In this document: positions 22,272 through 46,956 of the stretch, in pieces
Layout of the letters: the number at the start of each line of letters is the position of its first letter
Position numbering within the stretch: position 1 is the first letter of the stretch
Origin: a virus
DNA length: 64,000 nt
IMG/VR virus record: IMGVR_UViG_3300017991_000060
Coordinates: 53,866-117,865 of that record
Strand: one strand, 5' to 3'
Translations under genes and position numbers: made by a program
The notes under the pieces: model-generated
Database searches by the model: none
Seen by the model: only the letters and a program-made list of their open reading frames with translations
What the model was told of the DNA's origin: nothing

Positions 22272-22346
22272 CTTTCTCCGCCTCCTATGTAGGGTTCCGA
22301 GCCTTCAGTCTAGCATACCCCCAGAGAGCGGTTCCAGTACACGGGA

Positions 22347-29312: not shown

Positions 29313-30347
29313 CTACAGCCGGGGGTCGTTCGTGTACCCACCGGCGGGGAAGCCGCTGTACACCTCGTCCACCCGGAAGGGGTCCTCGCCGTGGTAGAAC
29401 CACTTGCAGACGAGCGCGGTCTGGGTGGCGCTCCGAGCCTCGCCCACGAGGGCCATCCGCGTGTCGGCCACGAAGCCCGCGCCGAGGGCCGCGTTGAAGA
29501 GCTCGGGGAGCGCGCCCATCGGGTCCATGAGCTTGCACCCGCCGCCCTTCGACACGAGCGAGGCGAAGGGGTTGAAGGTGTAGGCCGCGACGAAGTTGCC
29601 CGCGAGGGGGCCACCCGAGGAACCCGTCACCGTGACGATGCCGGTGGCGTAGTCGATGGAGCCCTGGACGGCTTCGTTGCCGGCCGTCGTCTCCACGATG
29701 TTCCCCTTGCCATCATCTGCGAAGGTGAGCGCGCCCGCGTTCGTGTTGAACGTGAGGGAGCCGGGGTTCACCCGCCCGAACCCGAGCTGGAACGTCTCGG
29801 GGAAGGCACCGGCGCACGCGATAGTCGTGGCCTGGGCCGGGCTCACGAAGTCGGTGAAGTCGGTGAAGTCGTAGGTCATCATCACGGGCTCGGTCGCCGC
29901 GCCGCCCCAAGTGAAGTCCACGAGGCCGTTCACGTAGTCGATGGAGCCGCGGACGTTCGCGGGGATGCCGTCGTCGTGGAGCACGCCGTTGCCATCATCC
30001 ACGATGTCGGCCAACGCGCCGCCCTCGACGATGCGGACGGTGCCCGCCACCACGGACCGCCACTGAAGCTTCCCGACGTAGCGGTTGCCGCCGACCGCGA
30101 AGGCCGTCAGCCACTCGTTCGTGCGGGTCTTCTGCGACTCGCCGTGACGAAGACGGAGGAGAGCGCATTCCTCGCCCACGTTGTGCGCGTGCACCGCGCT
30201 GACGTAGGAACGAACTCCGTTGGTGGGAACTGCCGGGGCGGCCTGAAGCACCTGCATGTTGCCCTGGGGCGGCACGCCCGTACGGTGCTCATCGTACCGA
30301 TCCCGGTGCTCGACGTACTGAATGCCGTTGAACACGTAGTTCGACAT
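29313..30347 (-). CDS. Putative virion structural protein with two DDGxG/IDYxxG modules
   Basis: VDDGNG...GSIDYVNGLVDF and ADDGKG...GSIDYATGIVTV. Confidence 0.65.
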   Translation of the reverse strand: MSNYVFNGIQYVEHRDRYDEHRTGVPPQGNMQVLQAAPAVPTNGVRSYVSAVHAHNVGEECALLRLRHGESQKTRTNEWLTAFAVGGNRYVGKLQWRSVVAGTVRIVEGGALADIVDDGNGVLHDDGIPANVRGSIDYVNGLVDFTWGGAATEPVMMTYDFTDFTDFVSPAQATTIACAGAFPETFQLGFGRVNPGSLTFNTNAGALTFADDGKGNIVETTAGNEAVQGSIDYATGIVTVTGSSGGPLAGNFVAAYTFNPFASLVSKGGGCKLMDPMGALPELFNAALGAGFVADTRMALVGEARSATQTALVCKWFYHGEDPFRVDEVYSGFPAGGYTNDPRL

Positions 30348-36379: not shown

Positions 36380-37297
36380 CTACACCACCTCTTCGATCTC
36401 GCCTCCCCAGGGGGTGAGCGCCATGTCGAGCCAACGGATGCGCTCCGAGAGGCACATGTACGCCGCCTCGTTGCACGGGATCTCCGCCGTCACGATGCGG
36501 TCGTCACGGGTCATCCCTACGACCGCTCCGGCCTCCTGGGCACGCTCGACCAACCCGGCCCACGCCGACTCCGAGATCGAGCTCTCAACAGAGAAGGTCG
36601 CGGTACGCCGGTGGTCGCCTGGGGGGCCGAGGATGGGGATCGGCGCGAACTCATCGATGACCTCGCGGGGGAACGCCACGCCGACCTCGGCGCGGACCTG
36701 ACCGTCGCCTACCGACTCCGCCGTCACCCGGACCAAGCCTGTGGTGGCGGAGAGGGCGTCTCGGAGGTACCGCTTCGTGCGCTCGGGATCATCTCCGTCG
36801 CCCTCGACCACCGCGCGGAGGAACGGGAGAGGCCGTCCGAAGGCGTCCATCACGTTCGGACGCGGCCAAGCGTTGTAGGAGGACCTGGGATTGCCGAGGC
36901 CGGACGCGCGCTCGGCCAGATGAATGAGCGAATGGAAGCCGCTCGCCACCGACTCAGTGATGGACATCTTCCCGTCGCTCGGGAGGTCCGGCCGCGCCGC
37001 TTCCGCCTCACTCACCTGGAGCGCAGCGCGTTCGGCCAGCGGGTCACGCTCGTACCCGCGGCGGCGGAGGGCTCCCTCGATGGAGGCCGTCACGCGAGCC
37101 GGGTGAGAACGTAGGGTCCACCTGGTCACGCCATCGCCCTCGATGGTGCCCTCGGCCAGACGGTCCAGGACCGTCAACGCGGCGTCGAGGGCCTCTTCCT
37201 CGATGCCATGGTCGATGGTCACGATCTCGTCGGGTCCGGTGCAGGCAACCGCAAGAGCACCATAGGCCGGGCCGCGGAAAAGTGTGGCGTCTCCCAT
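36380..37297 (-). CDS. Hypothetical protein (putative head-associated)
   Basis: 305 aa, AAGGAG SD; ITE/S and ISE/S motifs. Confidence 0.7.
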   Translation of the reverse strand: MGDATLFRGPAYGALAVACTGPDEIVTIDHGIEEEALDAALTVLDRLAEGTIEGDGVTRWTLRSHPARVTASIEGALRRRGYERDPLAERAALQVSEAEAARPDLPSDGKMSITESVASGFHSLIHLAERASGLGNPRSSYNAWPRPNVMDAFGRPLPFLRAVVEGDGDDPERTKRYLRDALSATTGLVRVTAESVGDGQVRAEVGVAFPREVIDEFAPIPILGPPGDHRRTATFSVESSISESAWAGLVERAQEAGAVVGMTRDDRIVTAEIPCNEAAYMCLSERIRWLDMALTPWGGEIEEVV

Positions 37298-37470
37298 GTC
37301 GGACTCCTTGTAAGGCGGTCGCCGGTAACGGACCGTAGGAGGCGGAGTCCAGGGTTCGCCACCGGACGACCATGTCCTTCAGCTCGGCACCGTATCTCCG
37401 CCGAGCTCTTCGCGGGCCAGTATACCGAACCGGCCCAGCGGCGTCACGCGAGCCGGGTGGGAACGTAGGG
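37088..37470. repeat. 29-bp direct repeat with one mismatch
   Basis: CGTCACGCGAGCCGGGTGAGAACGTAGGG (37088-37116) versus CGTCACGCGAGCCGGGTGGGAACGTAGGG (37442-37470). Confidence 0.9.
37301..37371 (-). promoter_or_regulatory. Pseudoknotted leader RNA sequestering the RBS of the 36380-37297 gene (HDV-like topology)
   Basis: Helix 37371-37357 with 37330-37317; GGACUCC (37350-37344) pairs perfectly with GGAGUCC (37307-37301), which contains the SD; inner hairpin GCC-UCCUAC-GGU. Confidence 0.6.
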
Positions 37471-37501
37471 CACAGGCCACGTCTTCGATGTTCTTCGCCA
37501 T
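37379..37501 (-). CDS. Candidate 40-aa leader peptide (uORF)
   Basis: MAKNIEDVACALRSHPARVTPLGRFGILAREELGGDTVPS; GAGGGG upstream; shares LRSHPARVT with the downstream gene. Confidence 0.4.
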   Translation of the reverse strand: MAKNIEDVACALRSHPARVTPLGRFGILAREELGGDTVPS

Positions 37502-37515
37502 TATGCGTCGTCCCC

Positions 37516-38721
37516 TCAATCGATGGTGTATGCCAAGTACGCGTGGGCGTTACTCAGATTATCGTGGTGGACGGTGAGGTAGTCCCCCTTCGAGCAATCC
37601 TCATCCGCGCTGCTCGTGCCGTAGGTCTTCGAGCTGCTGCCGGTAGGGTTCACCGTCTTGTAGACGGTGGCATTGCGCTCGAACTTGATGTACGGGCTTG
37701 AGGAGGTGTTCGCCCCCCACCCTACGTATTCCACGTTTCCGGCGAAGGGGAGGTAGAGCTTCGTCTGGTAGTCGCGGGACGTTCGGCCAGGGTCGAGGAC
37801 CGTGAAGAAAGGTCTCATCCAATAGGGATCTGGGTCTTCGATAGCCCCGCCAAAGATGAGAATGACCGTCTTGTCGCTGCCAGAAGGCTTGACATCGAGC
37901 CAGAACTGCGTCTCCGAGTCCCCGCTCGTCCCTTGCTCCGCTCCGATGATCCCGATGATGTCCCCGATAGCCACGCTGATGTTCTCGTTTTCGAGGTTGA
38001 GGGAGTTGATGTTCTCCTGCACCTCGAACTTCACTTGCTCCACATCGTTCTTGCGAACGCTGATGTAGTCCAAGTCCCCAGGAGTCTCTGTGATCCACGA
38101 CACCCTGTGGAGCGTGCCTGGCTTCGTAATGACGGCTGCGTGTTCATGGTTCGAGTTGCTACGCCCTATGTAATTGGGCGGGCCGCACACGCACGCATAG
38201 AGACTGGTGTTCGTCACACGCTGCGCGAACTGGTACTGGTTGGCCGAATCGTCCGCCGTCTCAACCCAGAGCACGACGGCGGTGTAGTCGCCACTCAACA
38301 TACGGATCGACACCAGGTCACCCCACGAAACGGGGATCTCCAGATCGTCTTCGTAGTCAGGCGTCTGCGCCGAGTAGCTGATCTGGCGGGCGATGCGCTT
38401 CGTGACGTTGCGTATCTCGATGGACCCCGCCGAGTTGTTCAGGTAGTACGACGCCGCCTTGATTGTCCCGGGCCTCGTCACGTACTGGAAGCGGCGATCC
38501 CCCGTACCGTAATAAACGTGGTAGGAGCCGGGCTGAATGTAGCGGCCCGGAACGGACTCGCTATTGTACCAGCAGGCGAAGTTCATGGTGTAGTAGCCGA
38601 CGACGGATGTCCTCCCAGCATCTCCGGGCTCCCACCTACTGTTCGACTGGCTCCACTTGGGAACCTGACCATCTGTGGCGCCGCTCTGCGCCAGCTGCGA
38701 GAGCCTAGTGTCCCCAGCCAC
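37516..38721 (-). CDS. Tail fibre / receptor-binding protein
   Basis: RLSQLAQSGATDGQVPKWSQSNSRWEPGD N-terminal fibre motif; beta-rich repeated domains; visibly more A/T-rich than its flanks. Confidence 0.7.
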   Translation of the reverse strand: MAGDTRLSQLAQSGATDGQVPKWSQSNSRWEPGDAGRTSVVGYYTMNFACWYNSESVPGRYIQPGSYHVYYGTGDRRFQYVTRPGTIKAASYYLNNSAGSIEIRNVTKRIARQISYSAQTPDYEDDLEIPVSWGDLVSIRMLSGDYTAVVLWVETADDSANQYQFAQRVTNTSLYACVCGPPNYIGRSNSNHEHAAVITKPGTLHRVSWITETPGDLDYISVRKNDVEQVKFEVQENINSLNLENENISVAIGDIIGIIGAEQGTSGDSETQFWLDVKPSGSDKTVILIFGGAIEDPDPYWMRPFFTVLDPGRTSRDYQTKLYLPFAGNVEYVGWGANTSSSPYIKFERNATVYKTVNPTGSSSKTYGTSSADEDCSKGDYLTVHHDNLSNAHAYLAYTID

Positions 38722-46432: not shown

Positions 46433-46920
46433 TTGCTCGCTCCCTTCGCTTTGAGTAAACGTCGCGCGACCTCATCGGCCGCACGCTTCGCCGCTTCCTT
46501 CGTCTCCTCGATGATCTGTGCGTGCTGTTCTCGCGCCGCCTTCGTCCTGGCGCGTTCGACCCGGAACGTAGACGGGTGCTCGACCTTCACGGCTTGGAAG
46601 ATGTCGATCTTGGCCTTCTTCGCGCCGTCCACGAAGGCGGCCGTGGGCTTGAACTCTCGTGCGAGCTCCACCGGTGGGATGAGTTCCGCCAGCTTCTCGG
46701 GGTCCGTCACACTGAAGGACCTACGTGAGCCGAACACAACGTTCCCTTGCTCCACGATGAGCTTGTCCTGGTTGTCCTCGGAGAGCATCAGCTCCAGGCG
46801 GGCACGATCCTCCTCGATGAGAGTCTCCAGGGCCTTGGCTCGTGACTTCAGGATGCATATTCGGGAGAGGAGGAGCTCCTTCTCCGCGGCGCGCTGGGTA
46901 GACGTAGCGGTGGTTTCCAA
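46429..46920 (-). CDS. Gam/Gp157-like protein (possible DNA-end-protecting or nuclease-inhibiting)
   Basis: N-terminal coiled coil then KLIVEQGNVVFGSRRSFSVTDPEKL; TTG start after TAGGAGG. Confidence 0.4.
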   Translation of the reverse strand: METTATSTQRAAEKELLLSRICILKSRAKALETLIEEDRARLELMLSEDNQDKLIVEQGNVVFGSRRSFSVTDPEKLAELIPPVELAREFKPTAAFVDGAKKAKIDIFQAVKVEHPSTFRVERARTKAAREQHAQIIEETKEAAKRAADEVARRLLKAKGASK

Positions 46921-46956
46921 GGTGTCGCCTCCTACGGTCCGTCACAACCTCGTGTG

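Follow-up and report, generated by a model that had tools for sequence, protein, structure and literature searches.

The window analysed here is a 64-kb stretch of DNA, the right-hand part of a 117,865-bp IMG/VR virus record with an estimated completeness of 95%, and it represents an uncultivated, GC-rich phage (GC content ~66%). Around the leader under study, the minus strand carries almost all long open reading frames (ORFs), and all neighbouring genes run in this direction. Following the minus strand, a UvrD-type helicase gene is succeeded by several unknown genes, among them one of 401 amino acids (38721-37516), by a 40-codon ORF (37501-37379) and, after an 81-nt gap that holds the element described below, by an unknown gene of 305 amino acids (37297-36380; the 305-aa gene). 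Beyond it lie two genes of more than 900 amino acids, a head maturation protease fusion and the major head protein, with the tail sheath further on. An earlier note, made from the DNA letters alone, had spoken of a late-gene leader, and this label suits the place of the gene ahead of those for the protease, major head and sheath, timing aside. The 305-aa gene starts with the ATG at 37297 and is preceded by a Shine-Dalgarno (SD) region at 37301-37309, in which the AAGGAG at 37309-37304 lies 6 nt before the start codon and the bases 37303-37301 complete the partner strand of a helix, P2, discussed below.

The product of the 305-aa gene has no match in Pfam or PHROG. It belongs to an unnamed family with 60 representatives at E<=0.001 in a library of 1.84 billion proteins, mostly from Logan or ENA, and the N-terminus of this family aligns at the annotated Met of the protein. 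Many members carry C-terminal extensions, reaching a total length of up to ~1300 amino acids, and close relatives of the 305-aa protein are few. An AF2 model (pLDDT 93) contains repeated ferredoxin-like modules that match generic ferredoxin-like domains only, and such modelled modules would say nothing on RNA binding. A search of JGI metagenomes yielded a single relative for which the DNA could be compared, the 6.4-kb contig L003, and no other relatives of the gene were found in IMG/VR (protein and alignment queries), in GTDB genomes or in isolate phages (tblastn).

The 40-codon ORF stops 6 nt before the base of the leader hairpin and is in frame with the 305-aa ORF, with one TGA and 27 sense codons between the two, none of which is a start codon. 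It carries a 28/29-nt copy of the stretch 37088-37116, giving rise to a direct repeat (37088-37116 / 37442-37470) whose source is a piece of the 305-aa gene (residues ~62-71), copied in frame into the 40-codon ORF. The repeat looks like the scar of an illegitimate recombination at a mosaic junction, and the short ORF, which need not be a gene, is probably left over from recombination. A sigma-70-like promoter candidate is present on the minus strand at 37419-37447, identified by consensus match only (9 of 12 positions, 17-nt spacer), and would begin the leader ~40 nt ahead of the hairpin. Its candidate -35 hexamer falls within the repeat copy at 37442-37470, and no equivalent sigma-70-like promoter was found in L003. 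The minus strand can also form a second, smaller hairpin just upstream of the leader hairpin (37381-37407, 9-bp stem and 9-nt loop). Its last base is the first of the TGA that closes the 40-codon ORF, and L003 lacks it.

The leader hairpin and its conservation

In the minus-strand RNA, the minimum-energy fold is a hairpin of ~18 bp with an 18-nt loop, spanning 37316-37372. The outer stem of 6 bp (37372-37367/37321-37316) is followed by a bulged U37366, the central stem of 9 bp (37365-37357/37330-37322) by an A37356.C37331 mismatch, and the inner stem of 3 bp (37355-37353/37334-37332) carries the apical loop (37335-37352), which is CU-rich and contains two CUCC motifs resembling an anti-Shine-Dalgarno sequence. 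Between the stem and the SD lie 8-9 nt. In isolation, the hairpin has a folding energy of -30.9 kcal/mol (z -3.2), and none of 200 dinucleotide shuffles was equally stable; wider context dilutes this signal, yielding z values from -1.55 (101-nt) to -1.89. An intrinsic, Rho-independent terminator can be ruled out, as the stem lacks a U tract and the loop is not small. Consistently, scanning 36900-38000 revealed no terminator-like sites, with at most 2-3 U following the stem and a loop of 18 nt.

The element appears to be unique in this phage. The 17-mer of the loop (37351-37335) occurs once in the 118-kb genome, and a covariance model (R1) recovered no second copy of the hairpin there. Pattern scans with the 17-mer, with stem plus loop and with loop plus stem returned chance matches in coding DNA that lacked a flanking stem, and the same holds for a 14-mer pattern among the matches listed. 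A 24-bit match to R1 at 29629-29693 on the plus strand shares the sequences of the 9-bp stem and not the loop; it lies antisense inside a 344-aa gene and is probably due to chance.

The comparison that follows comprises two sequences, the window and L003. For the 305-aa gene, identity between the two is 66-67% at the protein level and 70% at the DNA level, and third codon positions agree at 53%. L003 carries a hairpin of the same architecture before the same gene (L003:949-1006), which is predicted to be even more stable (-41.2 kcal/mol, z -6.1). The loop is invariant, with 17 of 17 nucleotides (37351-37335) identical to L003:971-987, and this conserved 17-mer begins at the same distance from the ATG, exactly 54 nt, in the two phages. 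At a near-neutral rate of 0.53 per site, such an identity has a probability of ~2e-5 per position, to be read against seven runs of at least 17 identical nucleotides in the coding parts of the alignment (~4 kb). The central stem is identical in its 5' side (9/9) and nearly so in its 3' side (8/9), the single difference converting a G.U into a G-C pair and being compatible with the fold. Across the hairpin, RNAalifold reported 16 pairs, none of them broken, with one pair changed on both sides (U-A to C-G) and two changed compatibly on one side. Owing to indels, MAFFT misaligns the inner stem, for which we used separate folds instead; these revealed that the mismatch and 3 bp of the window are replaced in L003 by five perfect base pairs, one of them flipped from C-G to G-C.

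The hairpin also marks a boundary. Homology between L003 and the window begins at the hairpin base, and the sequence upstream is unrelated, L003 containing a 297-aa ORF that ends 4 nt before the hairpin and has no homologue in the genome of our phage. A further contig, L002, carries a relative of the 401-aa gene (92% identical) and diverges right after the shared stop. Because the upstream gene differs in L003 and L002 departs after the 401-aa stop, we assign the hairpin to the downstream gene. The sequence from L002:3646 onward is unrelated to the window beyond 37516, placing a sharp module boundary at this position. According to these data, drawn from the comparison of two sequences, the leader contains an RNA structure that is unusually stable, is linked to the 305-aa gene and not to the upstream gene, and is under selection in both its stem and its loop.

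Loop pairing and a candidate translational operator

The earlier note had proposed that the leader folds into a pseudoknot locking the ribosome-binding site (RBS), and the helices it listed can all be found in the RNA. P1 pairs 37363-37357 with 37330-37324 (7 bp, two of them G.U) and its proposed extension is real as well; P2 joins 37350-37344 to 37307-37301 by seven Watson-Crick pairs covering the GGAG of the SD; P3 connects 37343-37341 and 37334-37332 (3 bp, one G.U); and the GG following P1 is present at 37323-37322. The dominant fold is nevertheless simpler than this pseudoknot, being one hairpin of 6+9+3 bp.

The duplex between loop and SD comprises 7-8 bp in the window (-14.9 kcal/mol), and P2 is stronger there than expected from composition-matched shuffles of the loop (p 0.0045). 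In L003, the flank of the SD differs and the pairing is confined to the GGAG/AGGAG core, amounting to 4-5 bp (p 0.11). Furthermore, when the loop was paired with 471 RBS-like sites of the genome, the mean energy was -14.4 kcal/mol, and its own RBS ranked 199th of the 471. The loop is a generic anti-RBS sequence, and since L003 retains 4-5 bp only and the own RBS pairs merely at an average level, the 7-bp P2 is unsupported beyond the SD core. We presume that the CU-rich loop resembles the conserved 3' end of 16S rRNA. The earlier note's idea of a translational switch acting on 36380-37297 is plausible in its general form, in that a conserved leader structure precedes the SD and travels with the gene, but the 7-bp lock itself is not conserved. 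Covariation was observed for the hairpin but not for P2, of which four of the seven pairs remain in L003.

An extended RBS motif, UAGGAGG followed by CGG and sometimes by CGGAG, is common to several genes (22276-22287 in the window; C1:21370-21380 and the C1:43146 region in coordinates of the genome), and 11-12 nt of the hairpin loop form its complement. A variant of this motif, AGGAGGCGG, precedes the upstream ORF of L003 (L003:40-48).

Because the stable, co-varying stem carries a loop that does not change, stands at a fixed distance from the ATG and is linked to one gene, we favour a cis-regulatory RNA that is read through its loop. Specifically, the leader may serve as a cis-acting translational operator of the 305-aa gene, functioning via loop-SD pairing and/or a bound protein, a reading to which we assign a probability of roughly one half on the basis of the sequences compared. 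In this model, an 18-20-bp stem would present the invariant CU-rich loop in the minus-strand mRNA leader, and the operator should act on translation initiation, setting the amount of the 305-aa gene product that is made. The two CUCC motifs of the loop could pair with the gene's own GGAG, and the complete invariance of the loop would point to a further reader, most likely a protein. Formation of a loop-SD pseudoknot should require the outer 6 bp to be opened, as the 8 nt from 37316 to 37307 cannot span a stem of ~20 bp. A ribosome terminating on the upstream ORF, the stop of which lies 4-6 nt before the hairpin base in both phages, might open this outer stem. Counting against the operator, the 7-bp pairing of loop and SD is not kept in L003 and is no better than average among the RBS-like sites of the genome.

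Three further candidates that would read the element as part of a coding sequence or of a translational signal were rejected. In both phages, the loop can be read as W-T-P-P-P-T in frame with the downstream ORF; however, in the window no start codon exists between the in-frame TGA and the ATG, the stems do not share a frame between the two phages, and the N-terminus of the protein family coincides with the annotated Met. A readthrough or frameshift signal was dismissed as well: no slippery site is present, and the upstream ORF, in frame 0 in the window, is shifted to -1 in L003. Finally, an antisense ORF was discarded, as an ATG follows the plus-strand RBS-like motif in L003 and none does so in the window.

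Leader operators in which a hairpin or pseudoknot lies beside the SD are well known from genes 43 and 32 of phage T4 and from E. coli rpsO (S15). The element studied here shares with them a stable structure just 5' of the SD, a conserved loop on a co-varying stem and the possibility of pairing between loop and RBS. It differs in its much longer stem (~20 bp) and much larger loop (18 nt), and has no sequence similarity to any of these operators and no match to an Rfam family. In the repZ/repA leaders of IncI-alpha and IncB plasmids, translation is activated by a pseudoknot between a loop and the RBS region, the formation of which an antisense RNA prevents. There, as in the phage leader, the loop can base-pair with a sequence next to the downstream RBS and the structure is closely preceded by the end of an upstream ORF, yet in our case this upstream ORF differs between the two phages. 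Should the operator be real, it would represent a further uncatalogued cis-regulatory RNA of an uncultivated phage, without an Rfam family, and could help to reveal the control of a widespread, unnamed family of head-region proteins.

Other explanations for the conserved leader

An unlikely but serious alternative to the operator is a hairpin that functions between cistrons in RNA processing, stability or insulation, for example as an RNase III substrate or as a barrier to decay. Such a hairpin would adjust the ratio of upstream to downstream message, and pairing of loop and SD would play no part. Near-20-bp stems with small defects belong to the length class accepted by RNase III, as exemplified by the processing sites of phages T7 and lambda. 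The leader hairpin fits this description, sitting directly after the stop of the upstream ORF in both phages and lacking a U tract. For a processing signal, however, one would not expect a 17-nt loop to stay unchanged while the stem varies, and the element tracks the downstream gene rather than the upstream one.

More improbable is that the element is a relic at a mosaic junction, without a function of its own and kept by hitch-hiking or recent exchange. The idea draws on the location of the element, exactly where the homology to L003 starts and L002 diverges, and on the neighbouring 28/29-nt duplication, which points to illegitimate recombination at this place; moreover, two copies of the hairpin are known. 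On the other hand, the flanking coding DNA has drifted to 70% identity overall and 53% at third positions, yet the loop is identical at 17 of 17 positions and the changes in the stem keep its pairing. The stability of both hairpins (z -3.2 and -6.1) likewise speaks against a relic. We disfavour the relic chiefly because of the compensatory changes in the stem.

Similarly improbable is an antisense function in trans, in which the loop would nucleate on the RBS of an early gene (start at 46920), spread into the 3' arm to form a 20-bp duplex and thereby shut off early translation upon synthesis of the leader. The 17 nt of the leader segment 37344-37328 have a perfect complement at 46942-46926 of the same strand, and the pairing extends by a G.U, a U-A and a G-C to 20 bp (37344-37325 / 46945-46926). 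The partner region, 46926-46945 on the minus strand, comprises the 5'UTR and SD of an early-looking gene with a TTG start at 46920 and may be a trans target or a coincidence. It is located in a 30-nt, poorly structured 5'UTR behind a near-consensus sigma-70 promoter (46985-46957, minus strand; 11 of 12 positions, 17-nt spacer), probably one that is used early. Pairing of the 3' arm with this target is more favourable than with the 5' arm of the hairpin itself, and folding the two RNAs together yields a difference of -14.8 kcal/mol relative to the separate molecules. Shuffling gave an expectation of 0.04 for a 17-mer with at most two mismatches. An empirical null was less impressive: 3 of 169 leader windows of 88 nt reach a 17-nt complement elsewhere, two of the three being this very pair, which corresponds to p ~0.01-0.02 per leader for a match found post hoc. 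In addition, 10 of the 17 nucleotides represent the generic strong-RBS motif that recurs at other genes (22287-22276 and two sites outside the window), and the seven specific nucleotides lie in a stem segment that differs in L003. The match between leader and early UTR is real but statistically borderline. We found no relatives of the early gene, and the 6.4-kb contig of L003 does not include the early-gene region.

A precedent for pairing of this kind is the c4 antisense RNA of phages P1 and P7, which targets sites downstream in the same operon with a pairing that varies between immunity types. Both c4 RNA and the leader hairpin are leader-embedded structures exposing bases complementary to an RBS elsewhere on the same strand; here, by contrast, the candidate target lies 9.6 kb upstream and the match is borderline. 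A two-way switch, in which the loop gates the head-region gene in cis and loop plus 3' arm pair with the early-gene RBS 9.6 kb away in trans, is slightly less credible again. If it existed, a later message would silence an earlier one, providing a timing device within an mRNA leader that needs no separate small RNA. Trans pairing with an early RBS would be an interesting timing mechanism for a phage, but the present evidence does not carry it.

Very improbable, finally, is a site acting at the level of DNA, such as a protein-binding inverted repeat, or an RNA of the antisense strand exposing an SD-like loop. The two strands of the window copy fold equally well (plus -31.9, minus -30.9 kcal/mol), and when read on the plus strand, the loop corresponds to a strong RBS motif. 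In L003, however, the sense strand is favoured by 4.6 kcal/mol over the antisense strand (-36.6 kcal/mol), and the neighbouring genes all lie on the minus strand. It is because of this gene orientation and the sense preference of L003 that we assign the structure to the minus strand. Furthermore, the RBS-like motif on the plus strand of the window is not followed by a start codon, which disfavours an antisense RNA, and as a DNA repeat the arms are imperfect, with the G.U pairs turning into mismatches and no inverted repeat being detected.

The resemblance to HDV-like ribozymes

Having weighed the operator against these alternatives, we turn to the ribozyme resemblance, the dismissal of which is, in our opinion, the main value of the analysis, negative as it is. 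The earlier note had offered, next to the translational switch, a minimal HDV-like or theta self-cleaving ribozyme with a cut 5' of G37363, and had compared the leader segment to an antigenomic HDV core. At first sight, the resemblance is considerable. The segments follow the order P1, P2, P3, L3, P1, P1.1, J4/2, P2 of the nested double pseudoknot, P1 comprises 7 bp and starts with G, and a C-rich L3 is followed by a GG after P1 that can pair with the CC in L3. Moreover, both P1 and P1.1 are kept in L003.

Several features set the leader apart from this ribozyme class. We searched the window and L003 with 4227 Rfam models and found no HDV-type match at gathering score or at E<=10, taking the HDV-like content of Rfam 15 as given; the matches that did appear at E<=10 were noise (terC, snoRNA and miRNA models, E>1). 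No P4 hairpin is formed by the 14 nt separating the putative P1.1 from P2, and J4/2 is non-canonical. The candidate catalytic residue, C37310, aligns with a U in L003. In HDV-like ribozymes, the catalytic C, the first base of J4/2, allows no substitution, and its change from C to U is the standard inactive control (PMC10879173). The alternative residue C37314 is kept in L003, but would create a J4/2 of 7 nt and is embedded in the extended helix of the minimum-energy fold. Theta ribozymes, in turn, are defined by tRNA adjacency, the cleavage site being within a few nucleotides of a tRNA gene (PMC10879173), and ARAGORN detected no tRNA genes in the 64-kb window.

The pattern of changes between the two phages points in the same direction. 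In L003, P2 and P3 have decayed, the latter to two of three pairs. At the same time, the changes preserve pairs that the HDV fold excludes, namely those of J1/2 with the 3' strand of P3 and with J3/1, and those of the bases 5' of the cut site with bases 3' of P1.1. Since the stem changes in L003 maintain the plain hairpin and weaken P2 and P3, the hairpin is favoured over the HDV-like fold. The energetics agree with this preference, the hairpin amounting to -27 to -32 kcal/mol compared to -8.6 kcal/mol for P1 plus P3 and -11.6 kcal/mol for P2, and the hairpin would also form first in transcription. As judged from these sequence comparisons, the leader element is most likely not a self-cleaving ribozyme; the HDV-like reading, the least credible of all those considered, is rejected.

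How readily such a resemblance arises can be estimated from a P4-less descriptor that was fitted to the site. Its sole match in the window is the leader itself, and random sequence of equal first-order composition yields 0.4 matches per 64 kb, so that the HDV-like arrangement is not beyond chance. As arrangements of short helices like this one appear by chance about once per 150 kb in GC-rich DNA, a single relative sufficed to tell the plain hairpin from a ribozyme.
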